Notes: generated by a model from the letters alone, not told the origin. Counted from the stretch's first letter, positions 4,387 through 59,812 are shown. The stretch is 64,000 nucleotides of DNA from Candidatus Roizmanbacteria bacterium RIFCSPHIGHO2_02_FULL_37_13b (GCA_001789395.1 MFZK01000003.1:48390-112389), one strand, 5' to 3'. A program made the numbers and translations.

Positions 4387-4395
4387 AAAACATCT

Positions 4396-13617: not shown

Positions 13618-13654
13618 GTTTAATTTGCAGTATGTATTATATACAATTGAAAAC

Positions 13655-15193: not shown

Positions 15194-15898
15194 ATGTCGG
15201 AAAACGCACATCATCAGGATACAAATAATAAGTATATGTTATCACTTGCAAGCATTGCCCTCTTAGTAGTTTTTTTGGGTGTCGTTTTTTTTCTCTATAT
15301 GAAATCGAGTAAAAAATCTGAAGTCGTTTTCCCTGCCGGTTTAAATTACACGGGAACTGAGACAACGCCGATGCCTACTACGCCGCCAAAGAAAGAATAC
15401 AATTGGGGACAGCTTTCTTCAGCTGGAGATTGGGGAACATTTGTATCACAAAGAAAACAATATACTTTTAACCATCCTAAAGAATTGTACCCATTGATTT
15501 TTCCCGGAGATGTCAACGATTCAATGACATTTGATATAGCGGACGTCCCTGTACAACTTAACTTAATGGTATTGGTTGAAAATATCTCAAATTATGATCC
15601 TAAGCTTGCCGGTCAACAGGAAAAATTCGCGAAAGATTATTGGAAATTTTTTGGTGGTTTGAAACAAATGAACACATTTGAACCTTATAAAACTGAAAAG
15701 GGACTTAATGGATTTAAAGTTAATTATGTGACAAGAAGCGGTGCCATCACAAATGACAGCTATTTTCTGATGATCCCGGGTGATAAGAATCGAGTTATTC
15801 ATTTTGTCAATATTTTTCCAAAGGAAGCCGAAATTCTATTTACGAGAATTTTAAATAGCCTTGATTTCAAGATACCTACACCAGAACCGACTAAGTAA
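15194..15898 (+). CDS. Hypothetical extracytoplasmic protein with N-terminal signal anchor
   Basis: TM helix LSLASIALLVVFLGVVFFLYM, then a Pro/Thr linker TTPMPTTPPKK and a hydrophilic domain. Confidence 0.45.
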   Translation: MSENAHHQDTNNKYMLSLASIALLVVFLGVVFFLYMKSSKKSEVVFPAGLNYTGTETTPMPTTPPKKEYNWGQLSSAGDWGTFVSQRKQYTFNHPKELYPLIFPGDVNDSMTFDIADVPVQLNLMVLVENISNYDPKLAGQQEKFAKDYWKFFGGLKQMNTFEPYKTEKGLNGFKVNYVTRSGAITNDSYFLMIPGDKNRVIHFVNIFPKEAEILFTRILNSLDFKIPTPEPTK

Positions 15899-17141
15899 GT
15901 TTCTTGAGAAATTTCTCAAGAATTAACATTGTATAAACCAGCATGGATTGGTTAATACCGGGATATACACCGATCCAAAAACCGTTATTCATTATTAAAT
16001 CTGCATTTATTTGTTGTCCTATAATTTTGCAACTTATTTCTCTGTAAACCGGATGATGAAGCAGATTGCCGGAAAAGATATTTCTTGTACCGATCAAATT
16101 CTTTTCCAAATATTGTGTGAGTTCGTTTCTTGTAAAAGGAGCGTCATGCTTTACTAAGACAGCAAAACCAAACCAACATGGATCTTCATTTTCAGATCGC
16201 ACTATTAGATCAAAATATTTATCATATTTTTTAAAAAAAGCGTAGTATGCCTCATAATTTCTTTTTCTTGTCTTGATGAAATTTGGCAGCTTCTTAAGCT
16301 GAGCTACACCAATAGCGGCCTGAAAATCAGTTAGTTTCAAATTGAATCCAATCTGCGAATAGATGTATTTATGATCATATCCATATGGAAGCTGGCCTAA
16401 TTTCCAATCAAATCTTCTTCCGCAGGTATTATCACATCCTGTATCACACCAGCAATCCCGACCCCAATCGCGAAATTGTCTTATCGAGCGATGGATAAGA
16501 GGTTTATTAGTTATTACAGCACCCCCCTCACCCATAGTGATCTGATGAGCAGGGTAGAAACTAAAGGTAGCAATATCACCAAATGTTCCTACTAGCCGAC
16601 CATTATATCGCGATCCTAAAGCATCACAACAATCTTCAATAAACCAAAGATTGTATTTTTTGACTAATTTCAATATTATTTTTAAATCAAAAGGTTTTCC
16701 TAAGGTATGCGCTATCATAATAAGCCGCGTTTTTTTAGTGATAGCTTTTTCAATTTTTGAGGAATCGATATTTAGCGTACGAATATCCGCATCTATAAAT
16801 ACAGGTCTCAATCCATACAGAATTCCCGGATTAACCGTCGTTGGAAAAGCGGCGGATGTCGTAATATACTCATCACCGGGTTTTAATCGTCTTTCTCCAA
16901 ATATCTTTGACGTTAGACTTGCCAAAGCAACAAGATTGGCTGATGATCCTGAATTAACGAGTGATACATAATTTACTCCTAAATATTTTTTGAAATCCGA
17001 TTCAAACTGCTTGGCAAACCGCCCTTCAGTCCACCAACCGTCCCGTGCTGCAGCAATTGCATTATCAATTTCGGCTCTATCAAAGACTTTTCCGGAGGAG
17101 GGGATATAGGTTTTACCGGGTATAAACTTTTTATTAACCAT
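15891..17141 (-). CDS. NDP-4-keto-6-deoxyhexose 3-dehydratase-like PLP/PMP enzyme (RfbH/DdhC/E1 family, DegT superfamily)
   Basis: N-terminus KFIPGKTYIPSSGKVFDRAEIDNAIAAARDGWWTEGRFAKQFE matches the RfbH/DdhC pattern; length 416 aa. Confidence 0.7.
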   Translation of the reverse strand: MVNKKFIPGKTYIPSSGKVFDRAEIDNAIAAARDGWWTEGRFAKQFESDFKKYLGVNYVSLVNSGSSANLVALASLTSKIFGERRLKPGDEYITTSAAFPTTVNPGILYGLRPVFIDADIRTLNIDSSKIEKAITKKTRLIMIAHTLGKPFDLKIILKLVKKYNLWFIEDCCDALGSRYNGRLVGTFGDIATFSFYPAHQITMGEGGAVITNKPLIHRSIRQFRDWGRDCWCDTGCDNTCGRRFDWKLGQLPYGYDHKYIYSQIGFNLKLTDFQAAIGVAQLKKLPNFIKTRKRNYEAYYAFFKKYDKYFDLIVRSENEDPCWFGFAVLVKHDAPFTRNELTQYLEKNLIGTRNIFSGNLLHHPVYREISCKIIGQQINADLIMNNGFWIGVYPGINQSMLVYTMLILEKFLKKLT

Positions 17142-18090
17142 GGTGAAGTTTTGATTTGTCTATATTTATTGAATCTTCAATAATATACATTGGTCTTCTT
17201 TTAGTTTCTTCAACAATAACCTGAATATATTTTCCTAAAATACTGATTGCCAAAAGAGTAATTCCACCAAAAAAAACAATCGCTAACATCAGAGGAATCG
17301 ACGCCTGGATCGGATTTCCAATCGCTATGACCCAGTATAGATAACCGACAATAAATATAAACGATAGAATAACCAAAATAAATCCGCTATAAATCATTAA
17401 ATCCAATGGCAAATATGAAAAACCAAACAAACCACGTTCCGCATGCTTTAAATAATCAAAAAAAGTATAACTGCTTTTACCATTGACGCGTTCTTGTCTT
17501 TTATATGGAATATATGCCCGTTTAAACCCAACCCAAGAAAGAAGTCCACGCCCAAAACGATTTTTTTCAGGCAGTGATATTAATGCATTCAATACTTTTC
17601 GATCAAATAAACCAAATCCTATTGTATTTGGAGGAAAATCAATGCTAGTCATCTTTCTTGAAACTCTGTAATATAATTTACGCATTAAGGCTATGAATAA
17701 TGATTTTTCTGATCTTTCATACGTACCTAAGACAATATCATATCCTTCTTCCCATTTTTTTATCAATTTTGTTATTACTTCAGGAGGATCCTGCATATCA
17801 GCTCCAAATCCGATTATAGCATCACCAGAAGCTTGATAAAGTGCTGCATGACCTGATGCTTCAGGTCCAAAGTTGCGTGATAAAAATATGCCTATAGCTC
17901 GTTTATCTTTCTTTGCAAGTTTAATAATTTCCTCTCGGGTATTGTCAGTGCTGCAATTATCAGCAAAAATGATCTCGAAATCGTAATTTTTGAAAGAATC
18001 AATAATTTTTTTTAGTTTATGATACATGAGAGAAATATTTTTTTCTTCATTAAGGCTTTGAATACATATTGAAATATTTTTTTGTCTCAT
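17134..18090 (-). CDS. GT2 polyprenyl-phosphate glycosyltransferase (ArnC/GtrB/DPM1-like) with C-terminal TM helices
   Basis: ISICIQSLNEEKNI...IIFADNCSTDNT DxD region; two C-terminal TM helices typical of ArnC/GtrB. Confidence 0.75.
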   Translation of the reverse strand: MRQKNISICIQSLNEEKNISLMYHKLKKIIDSFKNYDFEIIFADNCSTDNTREEIIKLAKKDKRAIGIFLSRNFGPEASGHAALYQASGDAIIGFGADMQDPPEVITKLIKKWEEGYDIVLGTYERSEKSLFIALMRKLYYRVSRKMTSIDFPPNTIGFGLFDRKVLNALISLPEKNRFGRGLLSWVGFKRAYIPYKRQERVNGKSSYTFFDYLKHAERGLFGFSYLPLDLMIYSGFILVILSFIFIVGYLYWVIAIGNPIQASIPLMLAIVFFGGITLLAISILGKYIQVIVEETKRRPMYIIEDSINIDKSKLHHG

Positions 18091-19031
18091 GAAACACCAG
18101 CAAGTAATTTATATTCTTTTTTTCTTTCTCTTAGTATGGTTTTGTTCGGCAAAATTATTTTGTATTTCCCAACATCAATCATTGTTTTTTTCTCTTCGAC
18201 TGTAAATAATTGTTCACGTAATTTTTCTCGCTCACGCAGTCCGATAATTTCAATTTTAATTTTTTTATGAGAAGAATTTTTTTTAATTGTCTCCATAGCT
18301 AAATCGTAAATTTTTTTTTCTCTCATTTTAAGAACAAATATTTCCTGACCTTGCATAACTGCTGTAGCTGATAGTATTAAACTTACTGCTTCTGACGTCG
18401 ACATGAAAAATCTTTTCATCGATTTTGAGGTTACCGTCACTGGTAATCCTTTCTTTATTTGCTCAATCCATGTAGGAATTACCGATCCGCGTGAATTTAA
18501 AACATTACCAAATCTGACTACGGCGAATTTTGTGATTGATGGACCAATATAACTTTTTGAAGATACGACCATTCTCTCCATTAATAGTTTAGTTACCCCC
18601 ATTATAGTATTTGGATTCACGGCCTTATCGGTTGATACGGCAACAACTCGATCTATATTCATATCAATACTTAAATCAATAAGGTTCTGAGTTCCCTGGA
18701 CATTTGTTTTTATTGCTTCAAAAGGATTATATTCACAATAGGGAACGTGCTTTAATGCAGCCGTATGATATACAATATCAACATTTCTTAATGCGATTGA
18801 CAATCGTTCTTTATCGCGTATATCGCCAATTAAATACTTGACATCAACTTTAGTATTTGTCTGTAAGATTTCTTTTTCAAGGAAAAAATGTTTAGATTCA
18901 TCCCGGGAATATATTCTTATCTGTTTACACGGGTATGCTAATAATTGTTTCACTAGTTCACTACCTATAGAACCTGTACCGCCGGTTATCAAAATGTTCT
19001 TATTACGGAATATTGAAGTTAAATCTATCAT
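18087..19031 (-). CDS. UDP-N-acetylglucosamine 4,6-dehydratase (PseB/CapD/FlaA1-like SDR)
   Basis: ILITGGTGSIGSELVKQLL...IRIYSRDESK is the characteristic short PseB/CapD N-terminus. Confidence 0.75.
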   Translation of the reverse strand: MIDLTSIFRNKNILITGGTGSIGSELVKQLLAYPCKQIRIYSRDESKHFFLEKEILQTNTKVDVKYLIGDIRDKERLSIALRNVDIVYHTAALKHVPYCEYNPFEAIKTNVQGTQNLIDLSIDMNIDRVVAVSTDKAVNPNTIMGVTKLLMERMVVSSKSYIGPSITKFAVVRFGNVLNSRGSVIPTWIEQIKKGLPVTVTSKSMKRFFMSTSEAVSLILSATAVMQGQEIFVLKMREKKIYDLAMETIKKNSSHKKIKIEIIGLREREKLREQLFTVEEKKTMIDVGKYKIILPNKTILRERKKEYKLLAGVS

Positions 19032-20146
19032 GATATCAACGGCTTAATCTTATCACAAATATAAGTTATTTCGGCTTTATTAAGTCCGATATAGAAAGGA
19101 AGAGCTAAGGTTTGACTTGAGATTTTTTCAGCAATTGGAAAATCATTCTTTTTAAACCCGTACATTTTTTTCATAAATGGTTGAAGATGTATCGTTGGAA
19201 TATATGGTTTTGTTTGTATCCCCATTTTACTTAATTTATTTATAATTTGATTTCTATTCCGGTTCAAAATTCTGATAACATATACAAACCATGAATGAGT
19301 TCTACCTATGCCAATTTTTGGAGTAATTATATTTGAAATAGACCGCAGTTTCATATCATAATATTCAGCAATTTTTCTTTTTTCTCTAATCATCCAATCT
19401 AGCTTCTTAAGTTGAGTCGTTCCTAATGCAGCGCTCATCTCATCCATACGATAGTTATAACCCAATCTCACATGATTTAGCCACTCTCGATTTTCACTCC
19501 GTCCTTGATTTCGTAAACTATTACAAAGTTGATAAATTCTTTTTGATTTTGTTACTAACATTCCACCTTCACCTGTAGTCATTTGTTTGTTCGGATAAAA
19601 AGCATAGACACCAACATCTCCAAACGAACCAGCCCATTTACCACGATATTTTGCTCCAAGACTTTCACAAGCATCTTCAATTATAGCCAAGTTATATTTA
19701 CGTGCGACAGCCATAATAGGATTCATATCCGCAGTTTGACCAAATATGTGAACCACAAGAATCGCCTTTGTTCGTTTTGTTATAGCTGATTCAATTTTAT
19801 GAGGATCGATGTTAAACGTGTCTTCTTCTATGTCGACAAACACTGGTTTAACATTCTCATATAGCAAACAATTACTTGATGCTATAAATGAAAAAGGAGA
19901 TGTTATAACCTCATCTCCTAATCCTAATCCTAACGCCTTAACTGCTAAATGTAACCCTGCCGTACCACTAGATACAGCCACTGCATATTTAACTTTTGCA
20001 TAATGTGTAACCAATTTTTCAAATTCGCTATACTTTGGACCCAATGATAATAAACCTGATTTTAGTACATCACTAACCGTCTTAATATCTCCGGAATCAA
20101 TATATGGTTTTGCTACTTGAATTATTTTCCTCACATTTTTTTTCAT
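19028..20146 (-). CDS. DegT-family aminotransferase (PseC/LegC-like nucleotide-sugar 4-aminotransferase)
   Basis: DegT motifs; PLP-lysine region AFYPNKQMTTGEGG; in an operon with the 4,6-dehydratase. Confidence 0.8.
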   Translation of the reverse strand: MKKNVRKIIQVAKPYIDSGDIKTVSDVLKSGLLSLGPKYSEFEKLVTHYAKVKYAVAVSSGTAGLHLAVKALGLGLGDEVITSPFSFIASSNCLLYENVKPVFVDIEEDTFNIDPHKIESAITKRTKAILVVHIFGQTADMNPIMAVARKYNLAIIEDACESLGAKYRGKWAGSFGDVGVYAFYPNKQMTTGEGGMLVTKSKRIYQLCNSLRNQGRSENREWLNHVRLGYNYRMDEMSAALGTTQLKKLDWMIREKRKIAEYYDMKLRSISNIITPKIGIGRTHSWFVYVIRILNRNRNQIINKLSKMGIQTKPYIPTIHLQPFMKKMYGFKKNDFPIAEKISSQTLALPFYIGLNKAEITYICDKIKPLIS

Positions 20147-20784
20147 TGATAAATATTTCGTATTTCTTTTTTGCTATGAAATATTTTTGCTGGATTTCCT
20201 CTTAAGGCTAGATTGTCTTGTAAATATGAGTGGGTAACAATTGATCCCATTGCCACAAATGTATTTTTTCCTAAATTAATATGATTTCTCAAACAACTGC
20301 CCAATCCTATAAAACTATTATCTCCAATTTTAACACCACCACCTGTCACTACTCGAGGTGCTAAATGTGAAAAACTCCCAATTGAATTATCATGTTCAAT
20401 AATACATCCCGTGTTTATATAAACACCATCATCAATTTTTGAATTTATGTTAATGATTGTATTAGCTCCGATAAAAACATTATTACCTAAAACCACATTT
20501 TCTTCAATAATTGAACATGGATGAATAATATTAATACAATTTATGTCCATTTTTTTTAATTTTAAATAAATTTTGCTCCTGACCAAATTATTGGCAATGG
20601 CTATAAAAACAGTAAAATTGCCGGCTTTATTAATCAAGAGTGGAATATCTGTAATTCTTCCCAAACAATCTGTTTTTTTTTCATCATCGATGAACCCCAG
20701 TAAATGATATTTTTTTGATTTCATTACCAGATACTTTACTATCTCTCCCTGATCACCATGTCCTATTATGACCAATTTTTTCAT
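20143..20784 (-). CDS. NeuD/PglD-family hexapeptide N-acetyltransferase
   Basis: MKKLVIIGHGDQGEIV N-terminal Rossmann-like segment plus a C-terminal LbH repeat, characteristic of NeuD/PglD/LegH. Confidence 0.75.
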   Translation of the reverse strand: MKKLVIIGHGDQGEIVKYLVMKSKKYHLLGFIDDEKKTDCLGRITDIPLLINKAGNFTVFIAIANNLVRSKIYLKLKKMDINCINIIHPCSIIEENVVLGNNVFIGANTIININSKIDDGVYINTGCIIEHDNSIGSFSHLAPRVVTGGGVKIGDNSFIGLGSCLRNHINLGKNTFVAMGSIVTHSYLQDNLALRGNPAKIFHSKKEIRNIYQ

Positions 20785-20786
20785 AT

Positions 20787-21938
20787 TTAATAAGTAATTT
20801 GCTTATCCAATAATTTATTATCAATACAAATGTTTTCAAGAATTCTTACAATTCTATTTGACGTCTTCCCATCTCCCCATGGATTTTTTATCATTTTGAT
20901 AAAATTTAAGAATTTCATATCATTTAAGCATTTATCTATGGAATTAGATAGCTGACTGTGATTAAATCCGACATCAATAACATTGCTTCCTTGTGGTCTA
21001 CCAAGTTGCCTGATGCCGACATTCACAACGGGGATACCGAAAGATCCAGATTCAATTCTTCCGGCGCTGCTATTTGTTATCCAACAGGATGTATATTTTT
21101 CCAGTGCTAAAAATATTTTATATTCCAAATTTGGGAATATTCGAAATAGGGGATTATTTTTTTGTTTTTCAATTTCCCTTATGATTTTCATTGCTCCGGG
21201 ATCTGTGTTTGGATAAATTATTACAACAGGTAATTTTGTTTTTTTTACGGCATTAAGAATAATATTCATTTGTCTACCAGCCATGTTAATTTGATTAAAT
21301 ACGGGATGTAAGACTACTAGTATATATTTATCTCCGGGCTTCAGATTTAATAATTTAAATACATCTTTTTTATCCGGCAATTTTTCATTCAATATCGTAT
21401 CCAAGCCCGGTGCACCAACTGTATGAATTCGCCATTTTTCTTCGCCCATTTTCTCGATCCGTTTTGCGGAATCTTCCGTGGCGGCAAAATGAAGATGAGA
21501 AAGTTTGGTAATTGCATGTCTAGCTATTTCATCAATATGATACGTTTTGTCTCCACCATGAATTTGAGCTGTAGGAATTCCAAGATAAACTGAAGCTATA
21601 GCAACCATCAACATTTCCACGCGATCGCCGAGTGTTATAGTCAAGTCTGGTTTTGTTTTATTAAATTCGTTAATTAATTTATTGAATAAATCTGAGGCAA
21701 AATGTGCTGTGGCAATTCTACTATCGCCATGAAATGATACAGCAATTTTTTTCGCGTGAGGAAATTTTTTTTTAACATCACCTTCACTGTGACCGAATTT
21801 TGGCATCAGATGGAGACCAGTATAATACAACTGCAACTTCAACTTTCGACTATTATCAATAGCATTAAGAACTGGGGTCATTAAACCAAAATCCATTCTT
21901 CCACCAGAGACAAACGCTATTTTTTTATATCTTGTCAT
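20787..21938 (-). CDS. neuC: UDP-N-acetylglucosamine 2-epimerase (hydrolysing), NeuC/LegG-like
   Basis: KKIAFVSGGRMDFGLMTPVLNAI and the later HGGD...H motifs of NeuC-type epimerases. Confidence 0.8.
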   Translation of the reverse strand: MTRYKKIAFVSGGRMDFGLMTPVLNAIDNSRKLKLQLYYTGLHLMPKFGHSEGDVKKKFPHAKKIAVSFHGDSRIATAHFASDLFNKLINEFNKTKPDLTITLGDRVEMLMVAIASVYLGIPTAQIHGGDKTYHIDEIARHAITKLSHLHFAATEDSAKRIEKMGEEKWRIHTVGAPGLDTILNEKLPDKKDVFKLLNLKPGDKYILVVLHPVFNQINMAGRQMNIILNAVKKTKLPVVIIYPNTDPGAMKIIREIEKQKNNPLFRIFPNLEYKIFLALEKYTSCWITNSSAGRIESGSFGIPVVNVGIRQLGRPQGSNVIDVGFNHSQLSNSIDKCLNDMKFLNFIKMIKNPWGDGKTSNRIVRILENICIDNKLLDKQITY

Positions 21939-21946
21939 ATTTTTAG

Positions 21947-23002: not shown

Positions 23003-23011
23003 CTATATATA

Positions 23012-23797: not shown

Positions 23798-23803
23798 GAT
23801 ATT

Positions 23804-25704: not shown

Positions 25705-25743
25705 AGTTTATTTATTAAATTTACGTTTCGACTTTCGGTTTTT

Positions 25744-27525
25744 TTAACTGAACGTCTTCATAATCGCTTCAAGTTCTTCTTTTGGCAGATGCGGCCACAT
25801 ATCCTCAAGTGATCCAGACTCCAACGAGCCGTCTAGTTTGCGCCGTGTGACAGATCGCGGCATTCTTGATTGATCATAAGAAATATTTACTTCATATAGC
25901 GTTGGTCCTTTTGTAATTAATGCTCTTCTAATTTTTTTTTCAATTTGACTATTATTTGAAATATAATCATATTGCAGGTCATAGGCGCTTGCTAATTTTT
26001 TGAAATTTGGATTTATTACTCCTGAATTTTTATCAGCTCCAACCAACCGTCCTTCAAATAAACTATTTTGAGTATCCCTGATTGATTTATAGCCTTTATT
26101 GTTAAAAACAAATATTTTTATGGGTAATTTGTAATAACGGATTGTGTTTAATTCCTGTAAATTAAACTGAATGCTACCATCTCCAGTGACACAAATGGAT
26201 CTCTTTCGATTATTTGCAATGCACGCGCCAATTGCAGCAGGCAAACACCATCCCATTTGACCAAAATTTTTATTAACATACGCCCGTTGACCTTCTTTAA
26301 TCTTAAATGCTTGATTAAAACTAATCACATCTAATCCCATGCCTGTTGTTAAAATATCCTCTTTAGTCAATAAATCGGATAATTTGTCCATAAATAAATA
26401 GCTGTTGACGTGTTTTTTGTCTTGTTTGAATTTCGAAATAATAGTCGGGTATTTCTCTTTCCAAAGTTTACCTGTCGTAAGCCATAGTGGATCTAAATGT
26501 AATTTAACATTTGACGATTGTTTTATAAACGCTTCAATAAAATCTTTACCATCCATTTTTATAGACATGTCTACATTTATTGTTTTTTTTTGAAGTTCAC
26601 CTTTATCAATATTAACCATTACTATTTTCCCCTTTCTTGCGAAGTTACTATAATTAAAGCCTGTAGAGGCAATGTTTAAACTGGCACCAATGCTTATTAT
26701 TAAATCTGCATTTTGAAGGACTAAATTTGCCCGTCTATAACCAGACGGACCAAAATAACCAATTAACTTTGGATGACTAAAGGGAATTAAATCCAATCCG
26801 TTTAATGTTAATAAAATTGGTATGTCAAATTCATCTAGAAGTTTATTTATAGTTTCACTTGCTCCTGATAAACGAATTCCATGGCCAAGAATAAAAACCG
26901 GTCGTTTAGATAATTTTAGTAGCGAAATCACCTTCCCAACTTTTTTTATTTTATTATTTTTCGACTTATATTTTGGGATATTAAACGATTTCAATTTTGC
27001 TTCGTCAATATTAGACCCCTGAACATCAAGCGGGATATTTAACCAGACAGGACCAGGCCGATTTGTCGTTGCCTCATGGAAACCCTTCTCCAATTCAAAT
27101 TTAATACTTTCCGGATTCATAATCGTTACGGCATATTTTGTTATCGGTTTTACCATCGGAATAATGTTCACCTCTTGATTTCCCATTTGCCTTAATTTTG
27201 AATAATCAGCAATTACTTCCCGTTTAACTTGACCTGATATCACCAACATCGAAATCGAATCTACCCAGGCAGCAGCAACTCCTGTAATAGCATTTGTTGA
27301 ACCAGGTCCTGTAGTCACTAAACATGCTCCAATTCTATTTTTCAATCTTGCATAAGACTCGGCACAAGTTGCACTTGCCTGCTCATGATAATTGGAAATA
27401 TATGTAATTTTCTTATTTCTATAGATCGCATCTAAAAGGTACATTATCCCACCACCGGATACTAAAAAAATATCGGTGATCCCTCGTTTTACAAGAAAGT
27501 CAATTACGTAATCAGCTACAATCAT
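25744..27525 (-). CDS. Thiamine-diphosphate-dependent enzyme, acetolactate-synthase-like (YerE-type candidate)
   Basis: 593 aa; N-terminal Pyr domain VADYVIDFLVKRGITDIFLVSGGG...HEQASA...TTGPGSTNAITG; C-terminal ThDP motif GDGSIQFNLQEL...NNKGY. Confidence 0.75.
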   Translation of the reverse strand: MIVADYVIDFLVKRGITDIFLVSGGGIMYLLDAIYRNKKITYISNYHEQASATCAESYARLKNRIGACLVTTGPGSTNAITGVAAAWVDSISMLVISGQVKREVIADYSKLRQMGNQEVNIIPMVKPITKYAVTIMNPESIKFELEKGFHEATTNRPGPVWLNIPLDVQGSNIDEAKLKSFNIPKYKSKNNKIKKVGKVISLLKLSKRPVFILGHGIRLSGASETINKLLDEFDIPILLTLNGLDLIPFSHPKLIGYFGPSGYRRANLVLQNADLIISIGASLNIASTGFNYSNFARKGKIVMVNIDKGELQKKTINVDMSIKMDGKDFIEAFIKQSSNVKLHLDPLWLTTGKLWKEKYPTIISKFKQDKKHVNSYLFMDKLSDLLTKEDILTTGMGLDVISFNQAFKIKEGQRAYVNKNFGQMGWCLPAAIGACIANNRKRSICVTGDGSIQFNLQELNTIRYYKLPIKIFVFNNKGYKSIRDTQNSLFEGRLVGADKNSGVINPNFKKLASAYDLQYDYISNNSQIEKKIRRALITKGPTLYEVNISYDQSRMPRSVTRRKLDGSLESGSLEDMWPHLPKEELEAIMKTFS

Positions 27526-27535
27526 ATTATTCCAA

Positions 27536-27578
27536 TCAATCCCGGGATCGCAACAAAGCTAATTCTATCCCGGGATTA
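27536..27578. repeat. REP-like palindromic doublet (third copy of the repeat that flanks the RAYT gene)
   Basis: tcaatcccgggatcg-caacaaagctaat-tctatcccgggattac; ~90% identical to the doublets at 61222..61275 and 61955..62000. Confidence 0.6.
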
Positions 27579-28524
27579 CTAATTTATACCATTCATATAT
27601 TTTTTTAATTTGACTTGTCATAGTATATTGCGGCTGCCATCCACAAATTTTTTTGACTTTATTAAAATTCAGAGTCTGATAGGGAATTTCATTATTTGCG
27701 TTATTTATAATCTTGTATTTAATTTTTCTATTTAATTTGGTTTCAACAATTTTTATTACTTTAATGACTGAAAGGGTGTCTTTTGATCCGAAATTAAATG
27801 CTTGTCCCTTCGTCTTATCAATATTTTCCATCAGCTTAATATAACCCGATACAACATCTTTGATATAAATATAATCACGAACATGTTTTCCGTCACTACG
27901 TATTTTTAGTGTTTTATTTTGAATAATAGACCTTAAAATATCAGGAATGAGTCGAGAAAAATGGAAATCACCCTCACCGTATACATTACCAAAACGGGTC
28001 ACAGTCACGGGTAATCCATAAGTTTTATAATAACCTAAACTTATCATGTCAGCAGCGGTTTTAGATAATTCATACGGATGATCTGATAAAAGGGGATCTA
28101 TTTCCCGATACTTTCTCTTTCCTTGTTTTCCATAAGCTTTGTCTGATGAGGCGATCACAACACCTTTAATATTTTGTAAACTCCGGGTAGCTTCCAGAAC
28201 ATTCACCGTACCCTGAACGTTAGTTTCAAACATTATTCTCGGATTATCATATGCATTTTCTACTTCGGATACAGCAGCAAGGTGATATACAAAATCGGGT
28301 TTTATCTTTTTAATAAGACTTGATAATCTCTGAAAGTTTCGGATATCGCAACTCGCATATTTTACTTTTTTTAGTGTAGGACAATTGGCGAAGTATGATA
28401 GGGGATGGATTCTTATGTCACATGCAATAATCTTATAATCCTTTTTCAACAATTCTTCTGCTAAGTGCGATCCAATGAATCCCGTACCACCGGTGATAAG
28501 AATTTTATTATTTTTTATTTTCAT
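27565..28524 (-). CDS. NAD-dependent nucleotide-sugar epimerase/dehydratase (SDR)
   Basis: ILITGGTGFIGSHLAEELL, YELSK catalytic motif; the last codons (…VIPG) are supplied by the REP element. Confidence 0.7.
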   Translation of the reverse strand: MKIKNNKILITGGTGFIGSHLAEELLKKDYKIIACDIRIHPLSYFANCPTLKKVKYASCDIRNFQRLSSLIKKIKPDFVYHLAAVSEVENAYDNPRIMFETNVQGTVNVLEATRSLQNIKGVVIASSDKAYGKQGKRKYREIDPLLSDHPYELSKTAADMISLGYYKTYGLPVTVTRFGNVYGEGDFHFSRLIPDILRSIIQNKTLKIRSDGKHVRDYIYIKDVVSGYIKLMENIDKTKGQAFNFGSKDTLSVIKVIKIVETKLNRKIKYKIINNANNEIPYQTLNFNKVKKICGWQPQYTMTSQIKKIYEWYKLVIPG

Positions 28525-29452
28525 TCAATATTTTTCTTATAATATATCTTGGTCTTTTTTTTACTTCAAGAAAGATTTTGGCCAAATATTCGGCAATTAT
28601 ACTGATCGACAAAAGTTGTACGCCTCCTAAAAATAGAATGGCTAAAATTAATGTAGGTATCCCGCGTGGGGAGTTTTTGTACATAAAATATTGAACGACA
28701 TCTATCGTCAATAATGCAAATGAAAAAAACATTACAATAAAAGCAATCTTTGATATCCACTCAAGCGGTTTTAAAGAAAAATTAATTATTATGGTTTTCG
28801 CCCACCAAAAACCTGATAAAAGACTCTCTGTTGATGTTCCTCTCACTCTGCTATCTCTCACATATTCTATCCCTGTCTGACGAAATCCTACATATGCCCT
28901 AAGACACCTAATGTAATAATCATATTCATCAATTTTTGTTAATTCCGTTATTACTTTTTTATCCATCAGTGAAAATTCACCGGCGTTAAGCGGTATATCA
29001 ATATAAGCCATCTTTTTTAAAAGCGCATAAAAACTTTTATAAAAAAGATTCCATAAAATGCCGTATCCTTTTCGCGACTTTCTTACGCCGTAGACGACAT
29101 CATAACCATTTTTCCATTGTTTAATGAATTTTGGGATCAACTCAGGCGGATCCTGAATATCTCCATCCAAGAGTACAGAGGCATCACCATTTGAGTATCT
29201 CAGTCCGGCGATAAAACTGGATTGAGGCGTACCGAAATTACGACTCATAAAAATTATCTTAACCTTCTTGTCCTTTTTAGCCAATTTATTAAAAATTTCT
29301 TCCGAACCATCTTTTGAACAGTTATCAACATAAATGATTTCATAATCGTATGGAATTTTCTTAAAAACCGAAACTAGACGCTGATACATTTCATTAATAT
29401 TTTCTTTTTCGTTGAAACAGGCTATTATTATTGATATTGTTTTTTTTCTCAT
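28508..29452 (-). CDS. GT2 polyprenyl-phosphate sugar synthase-like glycosyltransferase with C-terminal TM helices
   Basis: ISIIIACFNEKENI...IIYVDNCSKDGS; two C-terminal TM segments. Confidence 0.7.
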   Translation of the reverse strand: MRKKTISIIIACFNEKENINEMYQRLVSVFKKIPYDYEIIYVDNCSKDGSEEIFNKLAKKDKKVKIIFMSRNFGTPQSSFIAGLRYSNGDASVLLDGDIQDPPELIPKFIKQWKNGYDVVYGVRKSRKGYGILWNLFYKSFYALLKKMAYIDIPLNAGEFSLMDKKVITELTKIDEYDYYIRCLRAYVGFRQTGIEYVRDSRVRGTSTESLLSGFWWAKTIIINFSLKPLEWISKIAFIVMFFSFALLTIDVVQYFMYKNSPRGIPTLILAILFLGGVQLLSISIIAEYLAKIFLEVKKRPRYIIRKILNENKK

Positions 29453-29479
29453 ATGTTGTATTTATTCACGACTTAGAAG

Positions 29480-30550
29480 ATGCAGACTTTATTATATAAT
29501 ATCTTCATGAATTCTATTATCGGTCAGGATCTCGACTATATATTATCGACTGACATTCCCTGGACCAGACTTCGTAATAAAACGTTCCTCATCTCGGGGG
29601 CTGCGGGATTTATTGCATCTTATATTGTCAGGACTTTGGTCAAACTCAATGATCAAAAGCACTTAAATATTAAAGTCATTGGTATTGTTCGCAATAAACA
29701 AAAAGCAAAAATAAAATTAGCGGACATTATCAAAAGAGCTGATTTTAAATTAATTATTCATGACGTCTGCAAACCAATAATTATCAGAGAAAAAATTGAT
29801 ATTATAATTCACGCAGCCAGCTTAGCTAGTCCAAAATATTTTAATACCAATCCTGTTGAAACTCTAAATGCAAATATTTTTGGAACAAAAAATCTTCTTG
29901 AACTTGCAAAGGAAAAAAAATCCGATCATTTTCTTTTTTTAAGTAGCGGAGAAGTCTATGGAAAATTATCAAAAAAACAATTACCTACAAATGAAAAATC
30001 TTATGGATATATTGATCTTTTGGATGTCAGGTCTTGCTATGCAGAGAGCAAACGAATGGGTGAAGCAATGTCTATAGCGTGGAACCACCAATACAAAGTA
30101 CCAACGAAAATTGTCCGATTGTTTCATACGTATGGACCAGGAATTTCCCTAGATGATGGTCGTGTATTTGCTGATTTTGCAGCAAATATAATTAACAATC
30201 AAAATATAAATTTAAAAAGTACAGGTACGGCAATCAGATCTTTTTGTTATATTGCCGATTGCGTAACCGGAATATTTACAGTTTTATTTCAGGGTAAAAA
30301 CGGCGATGCTTATAACATTGCCAATGATAAAGGCAACACCAGCATTAAGAATTTAGCCAAATTATTGGTCGATATTTATCCTGAAAAAAAACTCAAAGTA
30401 ATTATAAAAAAAAGAAAAAAAAACGATCCATACTTACGAAGCCCAATCCAGATTAACGATCCGGACATATCGAAGATTAAGTCTCTTGGCTGGAAACCAA
30501 AATATCCACTTCAAACAGGATTTAAAAGAATGATTGATAGTTACCTTTGA
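29480..30550 (+). CDS. NAD-dependent epimerase/dehydratase (UDP-glucuronate decarboxylase/4-epimerase-like SDR)
   Basis: FLISGAAGFIASYIVRTL, YAESK catalytic motif. Confidence 0.7.
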   Translation: MQTLLYNIFMNSIIGQDLDYILSTDIPWTRLRNKTFLISGAAGFIASYIVRTLVKLNDQKHLNIKVIGIVRNKQKAKIKLADIIKRADFKLIIHDVCKPIIIREKIDIIIHAASLASPKYFNTNPVETLNANIFGTKNLLELAKEKKSDHFLFLSSGEVYGKLSKKQLPTNEKSYGYIDLLDVRSCYAESKRMGEAMSIAWNHQYKVPTKIVRLFHTYGPGISLDDGRVFADFAANIINNQNINLKSTGTAIRSFCYIADCVTGIFTVLFQGKNGDAYNIANDKGNTSIKNLAKLLVDIYPEKKLKVIIKKRKKNDPYLRSPIQINDPDISKIKSLGWKPKYPLQTGFKRMIDSYL

Positions 30551-30553
30551 AAA

Positions 30554-31471
30554 ATGAATAGAATAAACCGATTACAACGAACTTATAGAGAATATAGATC
30601 TGGCAGAATCACTAAATCCACTTATATTAAAAGAATGCATGATATCCATAAGATTCTTTTTGATTATTCAGATTTTATTAAAAAAACTGATATATCCAGC
30701 ATTGACATTAATACTTACGACGTAATAATGACATTAAATAAAACAGGATTGAAATTTCTTTGTGATAAAAATGATCATCGAATCGCACCAATTGAAATTA
30801 TCAACTTTAGTACATACGAAAATGAAGAAATGGCTGTCACTTTAAAGCTAATAAAGAAAAATTATACTATATTTGATATTGGCGCCAATATCGGTTGGTA
30901 TTCATTAACTCTGTCTCGCTTAAAAAAAAATATCCAAATCTATGCTTTTGAACCTATTTTGAGAACTTATAAATATTTAAACAGAAATATTGCGCTTAAT
31001 AATATTAAGAATATAAAAACAATGAATTTTGGTTTTTCAGATAAAAATAAAAAAATTAAATTTTATTATTATCCTGAAGGATCAGGAAATGCATCTGCTT
31101 TGAATATATCACATCACCCCAACGCTGAAAAAATAACAGGTCGGATTATGAAATTGGATGATTTTATTAATAAAGAAAATATAAAGATTGACCTTATTAA
31201 GTGCGATGTCGAAGGAGCTGAGCTCTTTGTCTTTAAGGGTGCCATAAACACCATCAAACAACAAAAACCGATTATTGCCACAGAGATGCTTCGAAAGTGG
31301 TCAAAACCTTTTAATTATCATCCGAATGATATTATTGAGTTGCTCGGTACAGTTGGATATAATTGCTACGTTGTCAGAAAAAAAAGATTAATTAACATGC
31401 CATATATCACCGATCATACGAAGGAAACAAATTTCTTTTTTTTACATCATCAAAAACATAAAAACATATGA
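30554..31471 (+). CDS. FkbM-family SAM-dependent methyltransferase
   Basis: IFDIGANIGWYSLTL and KCDVEGAE motifs, diagnostic of FkbM methyltransferases. Confidence 0.75.
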   Translation: MNRINRLQRTYREYRSGRITKSTYIKRMHDIHKILFDYSDFIKKTDISSIDINTYDVIMTLNKTGLKFLCDKNDHRIAPIEIINFSTYENEEMAVTLKLIKKNYTIFDIGANIGWYSLTLSRLKKNIQIYAFEPILRTYKYLNRNIALNNIKNIKTMNFGFSDKNKKIKFYYYPEGSGNASALNISHHPNAEKITGRIMKLDDFINKENIKIDLIKCDVEGAELFVFKGAINTIKQQKPIIATEMLRKWSKPFNYHPNDIIELLGTVGYNCYVVRKKRLINMPYITDHTKETNFFFLHHQKHKNI

Positions 31472-33258
31472 GAGTTGCCGATTATATTATTGATTTCATC
31501 TATAAGAAAGGCGCTTCGTACATTTTCACCCTGGCCGGTGGAGGAGCAATGTTTTTAAATGACGCTGTCTACTGTCATAAAAAAATCAAATATATCTGCA
31601 ATCACCATGAGCAGGCATCAGCTTTTGCCGCCGAGGCATATGCAAAAACAAATAATAAAATTGGGGCTGTCATGGTCACTTCAGGTCCCGGGAGCACCAA
31701 CGCCATTACCGGCCTTTTGGAAGCTTGGCAAAATTCGATTCCTTGCATATTTATATCCAGTCAGGCTAAACGTCAGCAGATGGTATACTTTTCTACCGTC
31801 AAAAACATCAGACAACTGGGGGTACAGGAACTTAATATTATCCCCATCGTCAAACCACTTACTAAATATGCGGCTGAGGTTGAGACTGTTGAAAGCATCC
31901 GATTTCATCTGGAAAAAGCCTTTTTTTTAGCTAAATCCGGCCGACCCGGACCTGTCTGGCTTGATATCCCACCTGATATTGCAACTGCGAAAGTCAAAGC
32001 TAATGAGCTAATCGGATTTAATAACAAAAAAACTTCGAACAAACCTTTAGCATCGTCTCATGATTTTGCTTCTGTATTAAACATGTTAAAAAAGTCACAA
32101 AAACCACTGATTATTGCAGGTGGTGGTATTCGACTTTCTGACTCAGTAGCGGAATTTAGAGAATTATTGCATTCGCTTAACGTCCCTGTCGTTGTCCCGG
32201 ATATGGGATTGGATTTACTTGAGTTTACTCACCCGTGTTATATCGGCACGGGTGGTACCAAAGGCCAGCGTGCTGCTAATATCGCGATGCAAAATGCGGA
32301 TTTGATCCTTGTGATTGGAAGCCGTCTGGCTATCCCATTTACCGGACATGAATATGACCGTTTTGCTCCTAATGCAAAAAAAATAGTAATTGACATTGAC
32401 AAAATTGAACACAAGAAAAAAACAATAAAAATTGACTTTTTTATTCATTCTGATGCCAAATATTTCATCGCCAATCTCAACAAAAAAGTAAAGAATATAA
32501 AATTCAAATTCAGGGATAATTGGCTAAAAAAATGTATTGCTTTAAAAAATAAATATACAGATCTTTTTCCAACATGGCAAAGTGAAAAAAATAAAATCAA
32601 TATGTATGAAGCGTTTAGCAAGATATCTGATTTTTCCAGTCAAGGTGATATCTTTACTTTTGATGCCGGTGTTACAGCATATGTCGCTACACAAACATTA
32701 AAAATTAAAAAAGATCAACGAGCGATAATACCGGGAGCAACATTAACCATGGGTTATAATCTACCGGCAATTATTGGCATTTGGGCAGCTACCCCAAAAT
32801 CAAACATTATTTGCATTACGGGTGATGGATCATTTCAGATGAATATCCATGAATTACAAACAATAGTACATCATAAAATTCCGGCAAAAATTTTTATTAT
32901 CAACAATCAAGGATATTTAGCAATCCGTACGACACAAAAAAATTTCTTTTCTGGCCGGCTTATCGGTGAAGGCATTAAATCAGGAGTATCTTTTCCCGAT
33001 ACGGAAAAAATTGCCAAAGCCTATGATATTAAGTTTTTTAAAATTAACAAGAATCAAGAATTAAATACCATTATTCCAAAAGTACTCCGGTATAAAGGTA
33101 CTGCCATATGTGAAATTATCTGCCCGACATGGCAAGACATTCTGACTACTTCTTCAAAACAACTACCAGATGGACGGATGGTTTCTTTGCCACTCGACGA
33201 AATGTCTCCTTTTTTACCTGAAGATGAAATGACTGAAATAAAAAATAGTTTATCCTAG
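31468..33258 (+). CDS. Thiamine-diphosphate-dependent enzyme, acetolactate-synthase-like (paralog of 25744..27525)
   Basis: VADYIIDFIYKKGASYIFTLAGGG...HEQASAFAAEAYA...TSGPGSTNAITG; ThDP motif GDGSFQMNIHEL...NNQGY. Confidence 0.75.
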   Translation: MRVADYIIDFIYKKGASYIFTLAGGGAMFLNDAVYCHKKIKYICNHHEQASAFAAEAYAKTNNKIGAVMVTSGPGSTNAITGLLEAWQNSIPCIFISSQAKRQQMVYFSTVKNIRQLGVQELNIIPIVKPLTKYAAEVETVESIRFHLEKAFFLAKSGRPGPVWLDIPPDIATAKVKANELIGFNNKKTSNKPLASSHDFASVLNMLKKSQKPLIIAGGGIRLSDSVAEFRELLHSLNVPVVVPDMGLDLLEFTHPCYIGTGGTKGQRAANIAMQNADLILVIGSRLAIPFTGHEYDRFAPNAKKIVIDIDKIEHKKKTIKIDFFIHSDAKYFIANLNKKVKNIKFKFRDNWLKKCIALKNKYTDLFPTWQSEKNKINMYEAFSKISDFSSQGDIFTFDAGVTAYVATQTLKIKKDQRAIIPGATLTMGYNLPAIIGIWAATPKSNIICITGDGSFQMNIHELQTIVHHKIPAKIFIINNQGYLAIRTTQKNFFSGRLIGEGIKSGVSFPDTEKIAKAYDIKFFKINKNQELNTIIPKVLRYKGTAICEIICPTWQDILTTSSKQLPDGRMVSLPLDEMSPFLPEDEMTEIKNSLS

Positions 33259-34034
33259 GACCAGATCTTCCACGGAGCTCTGCTTGAAAACCAAAGCTTA
33301 TTAAGACTTTCCACTTCTTTGTAAGTATCCATACAAAACCAAAAACCATTGTGTTTGAAGAGTGATAATTGTCTTTCCTTAACTAATCTAGCCAATGCTA
33401 AATGTTCGGTTTCTCGTGGCCGAAAATAATTAAAAACGCGTTTATCAAATACCATAAATCCACCATTTACCCAATCTGAAAGAACCGGCTTCTCAACAAA
33501 ATTTATCACGGCATCATGGCTGTCGACTTGTGATGAACCATATCTTGATCTGGGATGAACCCCTGTAATCGTGCCGATTCTTTTATTTCTCTTATGGAAT
33601 TTCAATAGATTATCTATATCCAGATCAATAACTCCATCTCCATAAGTCACCATAAAATACTTATCTCTCTTTGGAATATATTTCTGACATAATAATATAC
33701 GCTCTCCGGGTAAGGTCTTAAGTCCGGTATCGACAAAGGTGATTCGAAAATCATCGATTTCCATACGATCTTCCAAAAAATATTTTGTCTTATAATTTCT
33801 TGTGTTTAAAGAAAAGTTTGAAGTCAATGCTTTTTGATTGAGAAAATAACTCTTGATGAAATCACCTTTATATCCCAAGGCTAAAATAAACTCGTTGAAA
33901 CCATAATATGCATATATTTTCATAATATGCCAAATGATGGGTTTTCCACCGATAAAAACCATCGGCTTCGGTTTAAATTCGGTTTCTTCTTTAAGTCGGG
34001 TTCCTTCACCGCCGCAAAGAATTATTGTTTTCAT
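33255..34034 (-). CDS. rfbF: Glucose-1-phosphate cytidylyltransferase
   Basis: MKTIILCGGEGTRLKEETEFKPKPMVFIGGKPIIWHIMKIYAYYGFNEFILALGYKG closely matches the RfbF/DdhA N-terminus. Confidence 0.8.
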   Translation of the reverse strand: MKTIILCGGEGTRLKEETEFKPKPMVFIGGKPIIWHIMKIYAYYGFNEFILALGYKGDFIKSYFLNQKALTSNFSLNTRNYKTKYFLEDRMEIDDFRITFVDTGLKTLPGERILLCQKYIPKRDKYFMVTYGDGVIDLDIDNLLKFHKRNKRIGTITGVHPRSRYGSSQVDSHDAVINFVEKPVLSDWVNGGFMVFDKRVFNYFRPRETEHLALARLVKERQLSLFKHNGFWFCMDTYKEVESLNKLWFSSRAPWKIWS

Positions 34035-59801: not shown

Positions 59802-59812
59802 ATATTTTGTAA

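Follow-up and report, generated by a model that had tools for sequence, protein, structure and literature searches.

A close described counterpart of the locus analysed here is the yersiniose A pathway of Yersinia pseudotuberculosis (DdhA-D, YerE and YerF), in which CDP-glucose synthesis, 4,6-dehydration, an E1 dehydrase, a three-domain thiamine diphosphate (ThDP) enzyme and a reductase are all encoded in one glycan locus. Long acyl-branched sugars are represented by erwiniose, caryophyllose and gastriose, for which the corresponding enzymes are ErwE, MMAR_2332 and MyGE; the donors of these enzymes are keto acids made by aldolases (PMC9306805). The shared scheme begins with a dedicated enzyme that forms a 3-deoxy-4-hydroxy-2-keto acid, continues with a YerE-like ligation to CDP-4-keto-3,6-dideoxyglucose, and ends with an NAD(P)H reductase (PMC9306805). 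A further enzyme of this kind, JanthE of Janthinobacterium sp. HH01 (PDB 8rph, 8rpi and 8rpj), accepts ketones and uses long keto-acid donors in vitro, and its physiological substrates are unreported (PMC12188165).

The stretch of DNA considered here, hereafter the window, covers 64 kb of a contig no shorter than 143 kb and comes from a groundwater Roizmanbacteria, a member of the candidate phyla radiation (CPR). It holds the same set of functions as the yersiniose A locus apart from the E3 gene, which is missing from the window, and we read it as a further variation on the established route to acyl-branched sugars. This is probably a cell-surface glycan locus that builds C-4 acyl-branched 3,6-dideoxyhexoses by the logic of YerE. 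It differs from the yersiniose A pathway in having two carboligases, both nearer to JanthE than to PpYerE (35% versus 30% identity), and in belonging to a CPR bacterium, which has no LPS. Moreover, its sugars appear to be routed through ArnC-like polyprenyl-phosphate transferases, and the donor is probably not pyruvate alone.

Layout of the locus

The four key genes of the first-pass annotation were all recovered, at 15891-17141, 25744-27525, 31468-33258 and 33255-34034. Thirteen minus-strand genes run from 29452 down to 15891, overlapping or separated by gaps of no more than 39 bp. An FkbM-family methyltransferase (30554-31471, plus strand) and, by domain scan, a split transketolase (2702-4386, plus strand) had also been proposed and are indeed present, and GT-C enzymes of the PMT_2 type are encoded elsewhere in the window. 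Two ORFs that have no Pfam match, 15194-15898 and 6023-6709, encode membrane-anchored proteins and not nucleotidyltransferases.

Synthesis of the proposed CDP-linked acceptor

The gene at 33255-34034 (minus strand; CytT) had been called a glucose-1-phosphate cytidylyltransferase of the RfbF/DdhA type, and the profiles agree. TIGR02623 aligns with its product end to end at 263.5 bits, just below the cutoff of 300.25, and PDB 1tzf matches over the full length (3e-56). This enzyme would make CDP-glucose from glucose-1-phosphate.

The next step had been left without a confidently assigned gene in the first-pass annotation, as had a reductase. A putative CDP-glucose 4,6-dehydratase of the DdhB/RfbG type, in a short 319-aa form, can now be assigned to 27565-28524 (minus strand) because of its Asp-Lys SDK motif. 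Its SSDKAYG lines up with TSDKCY in the CDP-glucose dehydratase 1wvg and is unlike both the STNKVYG of CDP-tyvelose 2-epimerase and the STDEVYG of dTDP-glucose dehydratases; the protein also shares RLIPDILRS with 1wvg and contains YELSK. Its top NCBIfam match is TIGR02622 (209 bits, under the cutoff of 278); the sub-cutoff scores of this protein and of CytT count against the pathway proposed here. The highest-scoring PDB match is a CDP-tyvelose 2-epimerase, an identity disfavoured by a catalytic motif that reads SDK and not TNK. The dehydratase would convert CDP-glucose to CDP-4-keto-6-deoxyglucose.

The product of 15891-17141 (minus strand) is, judged by family profile and active-site residues, a genuine E1 (RfbH/DdhC), the PMP- and [2Fe-2S]-dependent CDP-4-keto-6-deoxyglucose 3-dehydrase. 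It scores 621.7 bits against the NCBIfam RfbH profile NF011936 (cutoff 423), and its top PDB match is the Yersinia E1 dehydrase 3bcx (E = 1e-145). An ordinary DegT aminotransferase would keep the PLP-binding lysine; here that position is occupied by His199, which aligns with His220 of 3bcx, the residue changed to Lys in the H220K mutant 3bb8. The cysteines C172, C230, C232 and C240 form an intact Cys-X57-Cys-X-Cys-X7-Cys [2Fe-2S] motif. Among 44 E1 orthologs the histidine is kept in 43 and each of the four cysteines in 43 or 44.

E1 would strip the 3-hydroxyl with electrons from a reductase encoded outside the window. Pfam scans of the larger ORFs in the window detected no Fer2, FAD_binding_6 or NAD_binding_1 protein that could serve as an E3/AscD/RfbI reductase, and a ferredoxin/FNR motif search, whose regular expression was perhaps too strict, gave no candidate either there or in 89 loci (L001-L089). 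SpnQ, a relative of E1, works with general cellular reductases. The resulting CDP-4-keto-3,6-dideoxy-D-glucose would be the ketone acceptor for both ThDP carboligases, each of which would decarboxylate an alpha-keto acid and join the acyl unit to C-4, leaving a tertiary alcohol.

Two YerE/JanthE-type carboligases

Both ThDP1 (25744-27525, minus strand) and ThDP2 (31468-33258, plus strand) contain the Pfam N, M and C domains of ThDP enzymes. The catalytic Glu (HEQ) and the GDGS..(27)..NN cofactor motif are present in both and are invariant in the family-wide alignment A1; JanthE itself has CDG in place of the canonical GDG of the two window proteins. The two had been described as mutual paralogs sharing the motifs VADY[VI]IDF, HEQASA, GPGSTNAITG and GDGS[IF]Q.N, all four of which are seen when they are aligned. 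Paralogy holds, at 43% identity over the full length, with the refinement that the duplication is old and not recent, each copy having its own orthologs elsewhere.

JanthE is the best solved-structure match of each (2e-116 for ThDP1 and 1e-107 for ThDP2). For ThDP1, JanthE (8rph) is followed by PpYerE (5ahk) at 6e-73 and by acetohydroxyacid synthases (AHAS) at about 1e-66, and for both proteins identity is about 35% to JanthE, 30% to PpYerE and 27% to AHAS. A neighbor-joining (NJ) tree was built from 94 sequences over 598 columns, with JanthE and PpYerE sequences taken from PDB alignments; PpYerE stood in for YerE, the set containing neither the Y. pseudotuberculosis protein nor ErwE or MMAR_2332. 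The smallest clade that holds both ThDP1 and ThDP2 comprises 61 of the 94 leaves and has JanthE inside it. The likeness to YerE that was originally suggested is thus retained, as both proteins group with JanthE and PpYerE, the former being the nearer of the two.

A role in branched-chain amino acid synthesis has to be considered, in which case both proteins would be acetohydroxyacid synthases located in a glycan locus by chance: fold, domain order, catalytic Glu and GDG...NN motif are shared with the AHAS large subunit, the top NCBIfam names read acetolactate synthase large subunit, and the source annotations read acetolactate synthase. The scores argue otherwise. Both proteins fall below every AHAS NCBIfam cutoff, with 387 and 359 bits against TIGR00118, far under its cutoff of 538. 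In the tree, ThDP1, ThDP2, JanthE and PpYerE fall together and apart from the E. coli enzymes IlvI, IlvB and Gcl in 100 of 100 bootstraps, and neither a small subunit with an ACT domain nor ilvC or ilvD turned up in Pfam scans of the window. The glycan context, moreover, is kept across the 80 related loci described below. We therefore reject the AHAS reading on scores, tree and context, considering it very improbable, and uphold the original placement with YerE. By sequence, ThDP1 and ThDP2 are YerE/JanthE-type enzymes that should attach carbon side chains.

Related loci and putative keto-acid supply

The recurrence of this gene set was followed in 80 related loci that span at least 15 phyla, many of the loci being truncated. 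Dehydratase homologs occur in 52, E1 in 48, CytT in 46 and ArnC-like GT2 genes in 36, and a CytT homolog adjoins a dehydratase homolog in 46. The complete trio of CytT, 4,6-dehydratase and E1, found in 40 of the 80, is the commonest partner of the ThDP family. The proposed link between the ThDP enzymes and a CDP-hexose module is thus borne out in the window, where all three genes are present, and in its recurrence elsewhere; this conserved linkage, like the family identities and catalytic motifs, can be read directly from the genes.

The usual gene order, CytT-DH-E1-(keto-acid maker)-ThDP-SDR-GT2, includes a place for an enzyme of donor synthesis. Within 2.5 kb of the ThDP gene, 44 of the 80 loci encode an enzyme that putatively forms an alpha-keto acid: a NeuB variant accompanied by a HAD phosphatase, an HpcH/HpaI aldolase or an HMGL/DmpG aldolase. 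Such neighbours match the published scheme of aldolase-made donors (PMC9306805). ThDP phylogeny follows the type of neighbour: the p-distance within types is 0.498, against 0.539 +/- 0.004 when permuted, and none of 2000 permutations was as low. JanthE falls in a subclade whose neighbours include no keto-acid maker. ThDP2 belongs to a clade other than that of ThDP1. Its orthologs with 60-70% identity are found in other Microgenomates, where they adjoin alpha-keto-acid supply genes that the window lacks beside ThDP2; relatives of ThDP2 adjoin DmpG/DmpF-like genes, as ErwE adjoins ErwI/ErwJ. No aldolase or transaminase is found beside ThDP2 in this window.

In one respect these loci depart from the scheme of ErwE, MMAR_2332 and MyGE. 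Instead of a pyruvate aldolase, the window and 33 of the 80 loci have, as the neighbouring keto-acid maker, a PEP-dependent synthase of the NeuB family, often with a HAD phosphatase or a whole legionaminic (Leg) or pseudaminic (Pse) acid pathway. A search of the accessible literature for a published link between YerE and NeuB returned unrelated matches only.

The nonulosonic acid module and a possible donor for ThDP1

In the window the NeuB gene belongs to a legionaminic-type nonulosonic acid module of five minus-strand genes (18087-23002), assigned from family profiles. As in legionaminic and pseudaminic acid biosynthesis, these encode in one string a PseB/PglF-like 4,6-dehydratase (18087-19031), an aminotransferase that keeps its Lys (19028-20146), a NeuD/PglD acetyltransferase (20143-20784), a NeuC hydrolysing 2-epimerase (20787-21938) and the NeuB synthase (21947-23002). 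Unlike in typical loci of that pathway, they are embedded between the E1 gene and the pair formed by ThDP1 and a short-chain dehydrogenase/reductase, SDR298. Five of the six functions of the legionaminic-type pathway are present; the sixth, the usual CMP-synthetase, is missing from the window, as it is in most of the related loci. Neither Pfam nor an iterative HMM search started from E. coli KdsB detected a CMP-ulosonate synthetase (CTP_transf_3) in the 64 kb.

The clade of ThDP1 has 13 members, that of the window included, from at least eight phyla. All 13 stand beside a Leg/Pse-type pathway, with a NeuB of the nonulosonic acid (NulO) type within 6 kb in 13 of 13, and the CMP-activating enzyme is usually missing. 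The tie between this clade and nonulosonic acid genes suggests that the branch is probably more than the two-carbon unit that YerE adds; the idea of a branched sugar as such is supported. As the most likely donor for ThDP1 we tentatively propose the legionaminic-type nonulosonic acid that the co-transcribed NeuB pathway would make, the alternative being pyruvate or another small keto acid. For the clade as a whole we put forward, as a conjecture that may well prove wrong, that free Leg- or Pse-type nonulosonic acids, not CMP-activated, are the alpha-keto-acid donors of the carboligases. If so, decarboxylation would leave C-4 of the CDP-3,6-dideoxyhexose carrying a polyhydroxylated, diacetamido chain of eight carbons, giving a 14-carbon branched sugar. 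On the same conjecture, taken more broadly, synthases of the NeuB family (with HAD phosphatase and cupin isomerase) would provide JanthE-like enzymes at large with a second, PEP-driven donor route. The constant neighbours of the ThDP1 clade hint at such an undescribed, very long-branched product.

The same genes could instead make two independent sugars: a pyruvate-derived, yersiniose-like 4-C-(1-hydroxyethyl)-3,6-dideoxyhexose formed by ThDP1, ThDP2 or both, and a separate CMP-activated legionaminic-type acid, transferred in the ordinary way, whose synthetase is encoded elsewhere in the genome. YerE and JanthE do take pyruvate (PMC9306805, PMC12247030). Nonulosonic acid genes are frequent in glycan loci, the window covers only part of its contig, and locus L011, whose ThDP enzyme belongs to the ThDP1 clade, carries two CTP_transf_3 genes. 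Yet of the 80 loci just three besides L011, namely L057, L061 and L066, yielded true CTP_transf_3 genes with the iterative HMM, which found none in the window, and Pfam assigns the domain to only 3 of 114 unassigned ORFs from 38 NeuB-containing loci. A genomic island of Paraburkholderia phymatum (L016, flanked by gcvT and uvrD) combines the full CDP-sugar set, a ThDP gene and a Pse-type pathway with a single glycosyltransferase and no CMP-synthetase. The proximity of NulO-type NeuB throughout the ThDP1 clade also speaks against separate products. Two independent sugars are accordingly possible but rather unlikely, and a NeuB-derived donor for ThDP1 is tentatively preferred.

Candidate reductases, SDR356-FkbM and a proposed lipid-linked transfer

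Directly downstream of ThDP1 lies SDR298 (24808-25704, minus strand), an RmlD-like extended SDR by Pfam (Epimerase, RmlD_sub_bind) with weak PDB matches to RmlD-type reductases. Homologs occur in 25 of the 80 loci, often straight after the ThDP gene. We infer a YerF-like role, in which this adjacent SDR would reduce the new side-chain carbonyl of the ThDP1 product. Between NeuB and SDR298 are a PtmA-like SDR (23012-23797) and a GFO/IDH/MocA oxidoreductase (23804-24811), both on the minus strand, a pair found beside ThDP genes in 15-21 of the 80 loci. They were set aside as reductases of the ThDP product, as they travel with Leg-type NeuC/NeuB in L014, L023 and L025.

The plus-strand string that ends in ThDP2 begins with SDR356 (29480-30550), followed by the FkbM-family gene (TIGR01444, 109.6 bits against a cutoff of 37.7; Pfam PF05050), whose stop overlaps the ThDP2 start. 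SDR356 looks UXS-like rather than a plain reductase, its best PDB matches being UDP-glucuronate decarboxylases (5e-42). The SDR356 and FkbM genes also stand together in L011, L068, L087 and L095; a role of the pair in tailoring the ThDP2 product was set aside, since in L095 it is detached from the ThDP genes.

Because of those matches, SDR356 could supply a different 4-keto acceptor, and one or both ThDP enzymes might act on its product or on a UDP-4-keto-6-deoxy-HexNAc from the PseB-like dehydratase. UDP-glucuronate decarboxylases have a 4-keto intermediate, SDR356 is coupled to FkbM and ThDP2 at the level of translation, a PseB-like gene adjoins ThDP in L017 and L018, and some family loci have no E1 within 10 kb. 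On the other hand, Pfam scans found no UDP-glucose dehydrogenase in the window, the commonest partner of the family is the CytT-DH-E1 trio, and the pair in L095 is flanked by GT2 genes of its own. Such an acceptor thus seems improbable, and CDP-4-keto-3,6-dideoxy-D-glucose is preferred for both enzymes.

Two glycosyltransferases resembling ArnC, GtrB and PgfS complete the minus-strand string. GT2b (28508-29452), its first gene, matches PgfS NF047588 at 233 bits and ArnC NF007986 at 136 bits, both under cutoff; GT2a (17134-18090), identified by profile match, has homologs after the ThDP cassette in 36 of the 80 loci. These enzymes would load the finished sugars on polyprenyl phosphate, and the GT-C enzymes would transfer the lipid-linked sugars outside the membrane.

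Significance

CPR bacteria have tiny genomes. Their surface glycans are uncharacterised, and we know of no glycan structure from any CPR organism. The presence in one CPR locus of three ThDP modules, putatively for sugar branching, implies that surface chemistry matters to such bacteria. JanthE-like enzymes, so far studied only as biocatalysts, gain a testable physiological context, with CDP-4-keto-3,6-dideoxyglucose as acceptor and a donor predicted from the neighbouring gene; a NeuB-fed donor route, if true, would assign JanthE-type enzymes a function in the cell. It would also yield new biocatalysts, namely carboligases able to take large, chiral, functionalised keto acids. Should nonulosonic acids indeed be the donors, the ThDP1 clade would make higher-carbon branched sugars of a new class and would use sialic-acid-like compounds independently of CMP.

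Genes for a predicted CDP-3,6-dideoxyhexose

The locus is, on its predicted functions, a variant of a known acyl-branched-sugar system. All of the open reading frames named in the first-pass annotation were found at their given coordinates, and its identification of 15891-17141(-) as an RfbH-type 3-dehydrase (E1) is borne out by a score of 621.7 bits against the curated RfbH model (cutoff 423) and by a full-length alignment with the Yersinia E1 dehydrase 3bcx (E = 1e-145). An ordinary DegT aminotransferase would keep its PLP lysine, as do the window's two other DegT proteins. At the lysine column, located through alignment with the H220K mutant 3bb8, E1 instead carries His199, and the histidine is kept in 43 of 44 homologs (E1 matches of at least 300 bits in related loci). 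C172, C230, C232, and C240 reproduce the Cys-X57-Cys-X1-Cys-X7-Cys spacing exactly.

The gene at 33255-34034(-), annotated as a glucose-1-phosphate cytidylyltransferase, aligns with the family model over its whole length, scoring slightly below the cutoff at 263.5 bits, and matches PDB 1tzf at 3e-56. The intervening 4,6-dehydratase had been left to be sought among the SDRs. The best NCBIfam match of 27565-28524(-) is CDP-glucose 4,6-dehydratase, at 209 bits below the cutoff of 278, yet the top raw PDB score went to CDP-tyvelose 2-epimerase. The motif SSDKAYG speaks against an epimerase: it aligns with TSDKCY of the CDP-glucose dehydratase 1wvg and not with STNKVYG of the epimerases (dTDP-glucose dehydratases have STDEVYG); RLIPDILRS is also common to the protein and 1wvg. 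The alignments favor CDP-glucose 4,6-dehydratase as the predicted function.

With these three assignments, the window is predicted to encode the first three steps of the 3,6-dideoxyhexose pathway. A motif search, perhaps an over-strict one, for the fourth component, the E3 reductase, found none in the window or in 89 related loci. SpnQ, a dehydrase related to E1, works with general cellular reductases, so the absence of E3 is not fatal to the pathway reading, though it is still a gap.

Two predicted YerE-like carboligases

The two proposed paralogs, ThDP1 at 25744-27525(-) and ThDP2 at 31468-33258(+), both contain all three ThDP-enzyme domains and the quoted motifs, and are 43% identical. Their PDB matches are strongest to JanthE (8rph; 2e-116 for ThDP1, 1e-107 for ThDP2), a YerE-like enzyme of Janthinobacterium, followed by PpYerE (5ahk; 6e-73 and 1.8e-73) and acetohydroxyacid synthase (AHAS; about 1e-66 and about 1e-65). 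With TIGR00118 they score 387 and 359 bits, respectively, against a cutoff of 538.

A neighbor-joining tree was built from 94 aligned sequences: ThDP1 and ThDP2, 84 homologs drawn from 80 species, sequences of JanthE and PpYerE transcribed from PDB alignments, and four E. coli proteins (IlvI, IlvB, Gcl, and PoxB); YpYerE was not among them. In all 100 bootstraps, ThDP1, ThDP2, JanthE, PpYerE, and all of the homologs form a clade that excludes IlvI, IlvB, and Gcl, and the window holds no AHAS small subunit and no ilv gene, so that the clustering with AHAS raised as an alternative in the first-pass annotation is not what was found. Recent duplication of the pair is likewise ruled out: each has its own ortholog (60-66% identity) in another Patescibacteria genome (L010/L095), and JanthE branches inside the clade common to both.

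The family is very large: database matches number more than 8000, and a single scan hit at least 599 species genomes. For the best 80 loci, annotation used the proteins of the window as probes, with crude ORF calling, flanks of up to 10 kb, and functions inferred from sequence. Because many loci are cut by contig ends, the counts are lower bounds: homologs of the 4,6-dehydratase occur in at least 52 of the 80, of E1 in at least 48, of the cytidylyltransferase in at least 46, and of an ArnC-like GT2 in at least 36. The commonest order is cytidylyltransferase, dehydratase, E1, X, ThDP, SDR, GT2, and the linkage is seen in Patescibacteria, Omnitrophota, Acidobacteriota, Verrucomicrobiota, Chloroflexota, Bacillota, Proteobacteria, and archaea. 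This linkage argues more strongly than any other evidence that the family would act, like YerE, on CDP-4-keto-3,6-dideoxyglucose. All told, the original observation was correct, and its CDP-hexose/YerE-like interpretation is supported by family identities, tree, and linkage.

Neighboring predicted keto-acid makers

Clustering and Pfam scans of ThDP neighbors without prior assignment identified gene X as usually an α-keto-acid-forming enzyme. It may be a NeuB-cupin fusion (about 505 aa) with an NT5C-like HAD phosphatase after it, a short NeuB with a KdsC-like phosphatase next in line, or an aldolase of either the HpcH/HpaI or the HMGL/DmpG type. Of the 80 loci, 44 have such a gene no more than 2.5 kb from the ThDP gene, and in 33 it is of the NeuB family. 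A published unifying scheme has 3-deoxy-4-hydroxy-2-keto acids as the donors of YerE-like enzymes (PMC9306805, PMC12247030). The gene X types fit this scheme. The ulosonic acids made by NeuB-type synthases carry the same 3-deoxy-4-hydroxy-2-keto motif. The ThDP2 orthologs of L095 adjoin DmpG/DmpF-like genes, the same pair that accompanies ErwE.

Tree leaves labeled by nearest keto-acid maker sort into short-NeuB, NeuB-cupin, HpcH, and HMGL clades (the last including ThDP2), a clade without such a neighbor (including JanthE), and a 13-leaf clade including ThDP1. Within a type the distance averages 0.498, compared with 0.539 ± 0.004 when labels are shuffled (0 of 2000 shuffles as low), a pattern that demonstrates coupled inheritance and not coupled chemistry, since cassette co-movement of linked genes gives the same result.

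ThDP2 orthologs in other Roizmanbacteria (L096, 8823-14733; L097, 8795-14825) have a class I aminotransferase on one side and aspartate kinase, homoserine dehydrogenase, and aspartate-semialdehyde dehydrogenase on the other. This suggests a route to homoserine-derived 4-hydroxy-2-oxobutanoate as donor; such organisms otherwise lack most amino-acid synthesis, which makes these genes notable.

One Omnitrophota locus ('Gorgyraea atricola', L008, 3197-19440) combines a cytidylyltransferase-dehydratase-ThDP-NeuB/cupin cassette with an E1_dh/Transket_pyr pair. It also has four radical SAM genes, of which one includes a B12-binding domain, and, as a gene of its own, a methyltransferase with C-methyltransferase domains. 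E1_dh/Transket_pyr pairs, of the α-keto acid dehydrogenase type, make acetyl-branched sugars in antibiotics.

Nonulosonic acid as a candidate donor

Thirteen minus-strand genes occupy 29452 to 15891, none separated from the next by more than 39 bp, in the order GT2b, 4,6-dehydratase, ThDP1, SDR298, GFO, PtmA-like SDR, NeuB, NeuC, acetyltransferase, aminotransferase, PseB-like dehydratase, GT2a, and E1. This order places the nonulosonic acid (NulO) genes within the CDP-sugar operon. L096 has the same order, with a formyltransferase replacing the acetyltransferase. Counting the window's own ThDP1, a NulO-type NeuB lies within 6 kb in 13 of 13 members of the ThDP1 clade, usually with PseB-like and aminotransferase genes also near.

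No CMP-ulosonate synthetase was found within the 64-kb window. Iterative HMM searches recovered true CTP_transf_3 genes in just four of the 80 loci (L011, L057, L061, and L066), and the Pfam family appears in 3 of 114 previously unassigned ORFs from 38 NeuB-containing loci. The best example comes from cultured Paraburkholderia phymatum EG181B (L016, 5500-19912), where gcvT and uvrD flank a 14-kb island: cytidylyltransferase, 4,6-dehydratase, E1, SDR, a ThDP1-clade enzyme, PseC-like, an unassigned 409-aa ORF, GNAT, NeuB, an unassigned 267-aa ORF, PseB-like, one GT2, and one methyltransferase. Its NulO genes are Pse-type, and the island contains no CMP-synthetase. A single glycosyltransferase, where two sugars would otherwise need serving, argues that the NulO is consumed by the ThDP enzyme as donor and not activated as a separate sugar, a reading we hold at somewhat less than even odds. 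A CMP-synthetase could be located elsewhere in the genome, outside the examined regions. We know of no reported NulO-derived branched sugar of this sort.

Downstream steps and genomic setting

SDR298 (24808-25704(-)) has weak RmlD-type PDB matches only, and a gene of its type directly follows the ThDP1-type gene in many loci; assigned by position only, it would perform a YerF-like reduction. GT2a (17134-18090(-)) and GT2b (28508-29452(-)) resemble PgfS, ArnC, and GtrB in NCBIfam, enzymes that make polyprenyl-phosphate sugars used by GT-C transferases, and their products would pass to the window's three GT-C transferases. Two carboligases and two ArnC-like GT2 proteins would fit two branched sugars. 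SDR356 (29480-30550(+)) best matches UDP-glucuronate decarboxylases in PDB; its pairing with FkbM (30554-31471(+)) is conserved across loci, with the ThDP gene not always adjacent. The divergent starts of GT2b and SDR356 (29452/29480), taking longest ORFs, are separated by 27 bp, implying either promoters within coding sequence or miscalled start codons; in one public gene call, SDR356 begins 27 nt further on.

The window (GC about 32%) matches Rifle aquifer metagenome scaffolds identically, and ThDP1 shows 100% identity to a protein from Candidatus Roizmanbacteria bacterium RIFCSPHIGHO2_02_FULL_37. By Pfam, its first 44 kb are glycan genes almost throughout, including several GT2, the three GT-C/PMT_2-like membrane transferases, a Wzx-like flippase, methyltransferases, and sugar-nucleotide enzymes. 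A separate small module at 11202-13656(-) (DegT aminotransferase with its lysine, hexapeptide acyltransferase, GT2) probably makes an N-acylated amino sugar. In a third ThDP module (2702-6035(+)), a split transketolase (2702-3487 and 3484-4386) precedes an SDR (4396-5331) and then a GT2 (5328-6035). Close to ThDP locus L047 there is also a split transketolase of similar kind, and L009 has a Transketolase_N gene at its end. A sugar-branching role for split transketolases has hitherto been proposed in Streptomyces only (PMC12247030). Lying 3' of the glycan region are a tyrosine recombinase (57606-58550(-)) and an IS200/Y1-type transposase (61272-61937(-)), with two large ORFs without Pfam match between them (58641-61141).

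To our knowledge, no glycan chemistry is known for the host lineage. The testable lead is that carboligase donors may come from NeuB-type synthases, complete Leg/Pse pathways among them, and the island in cultured P. phymatum EG181B makes the NulO-donor idea open to experiment.
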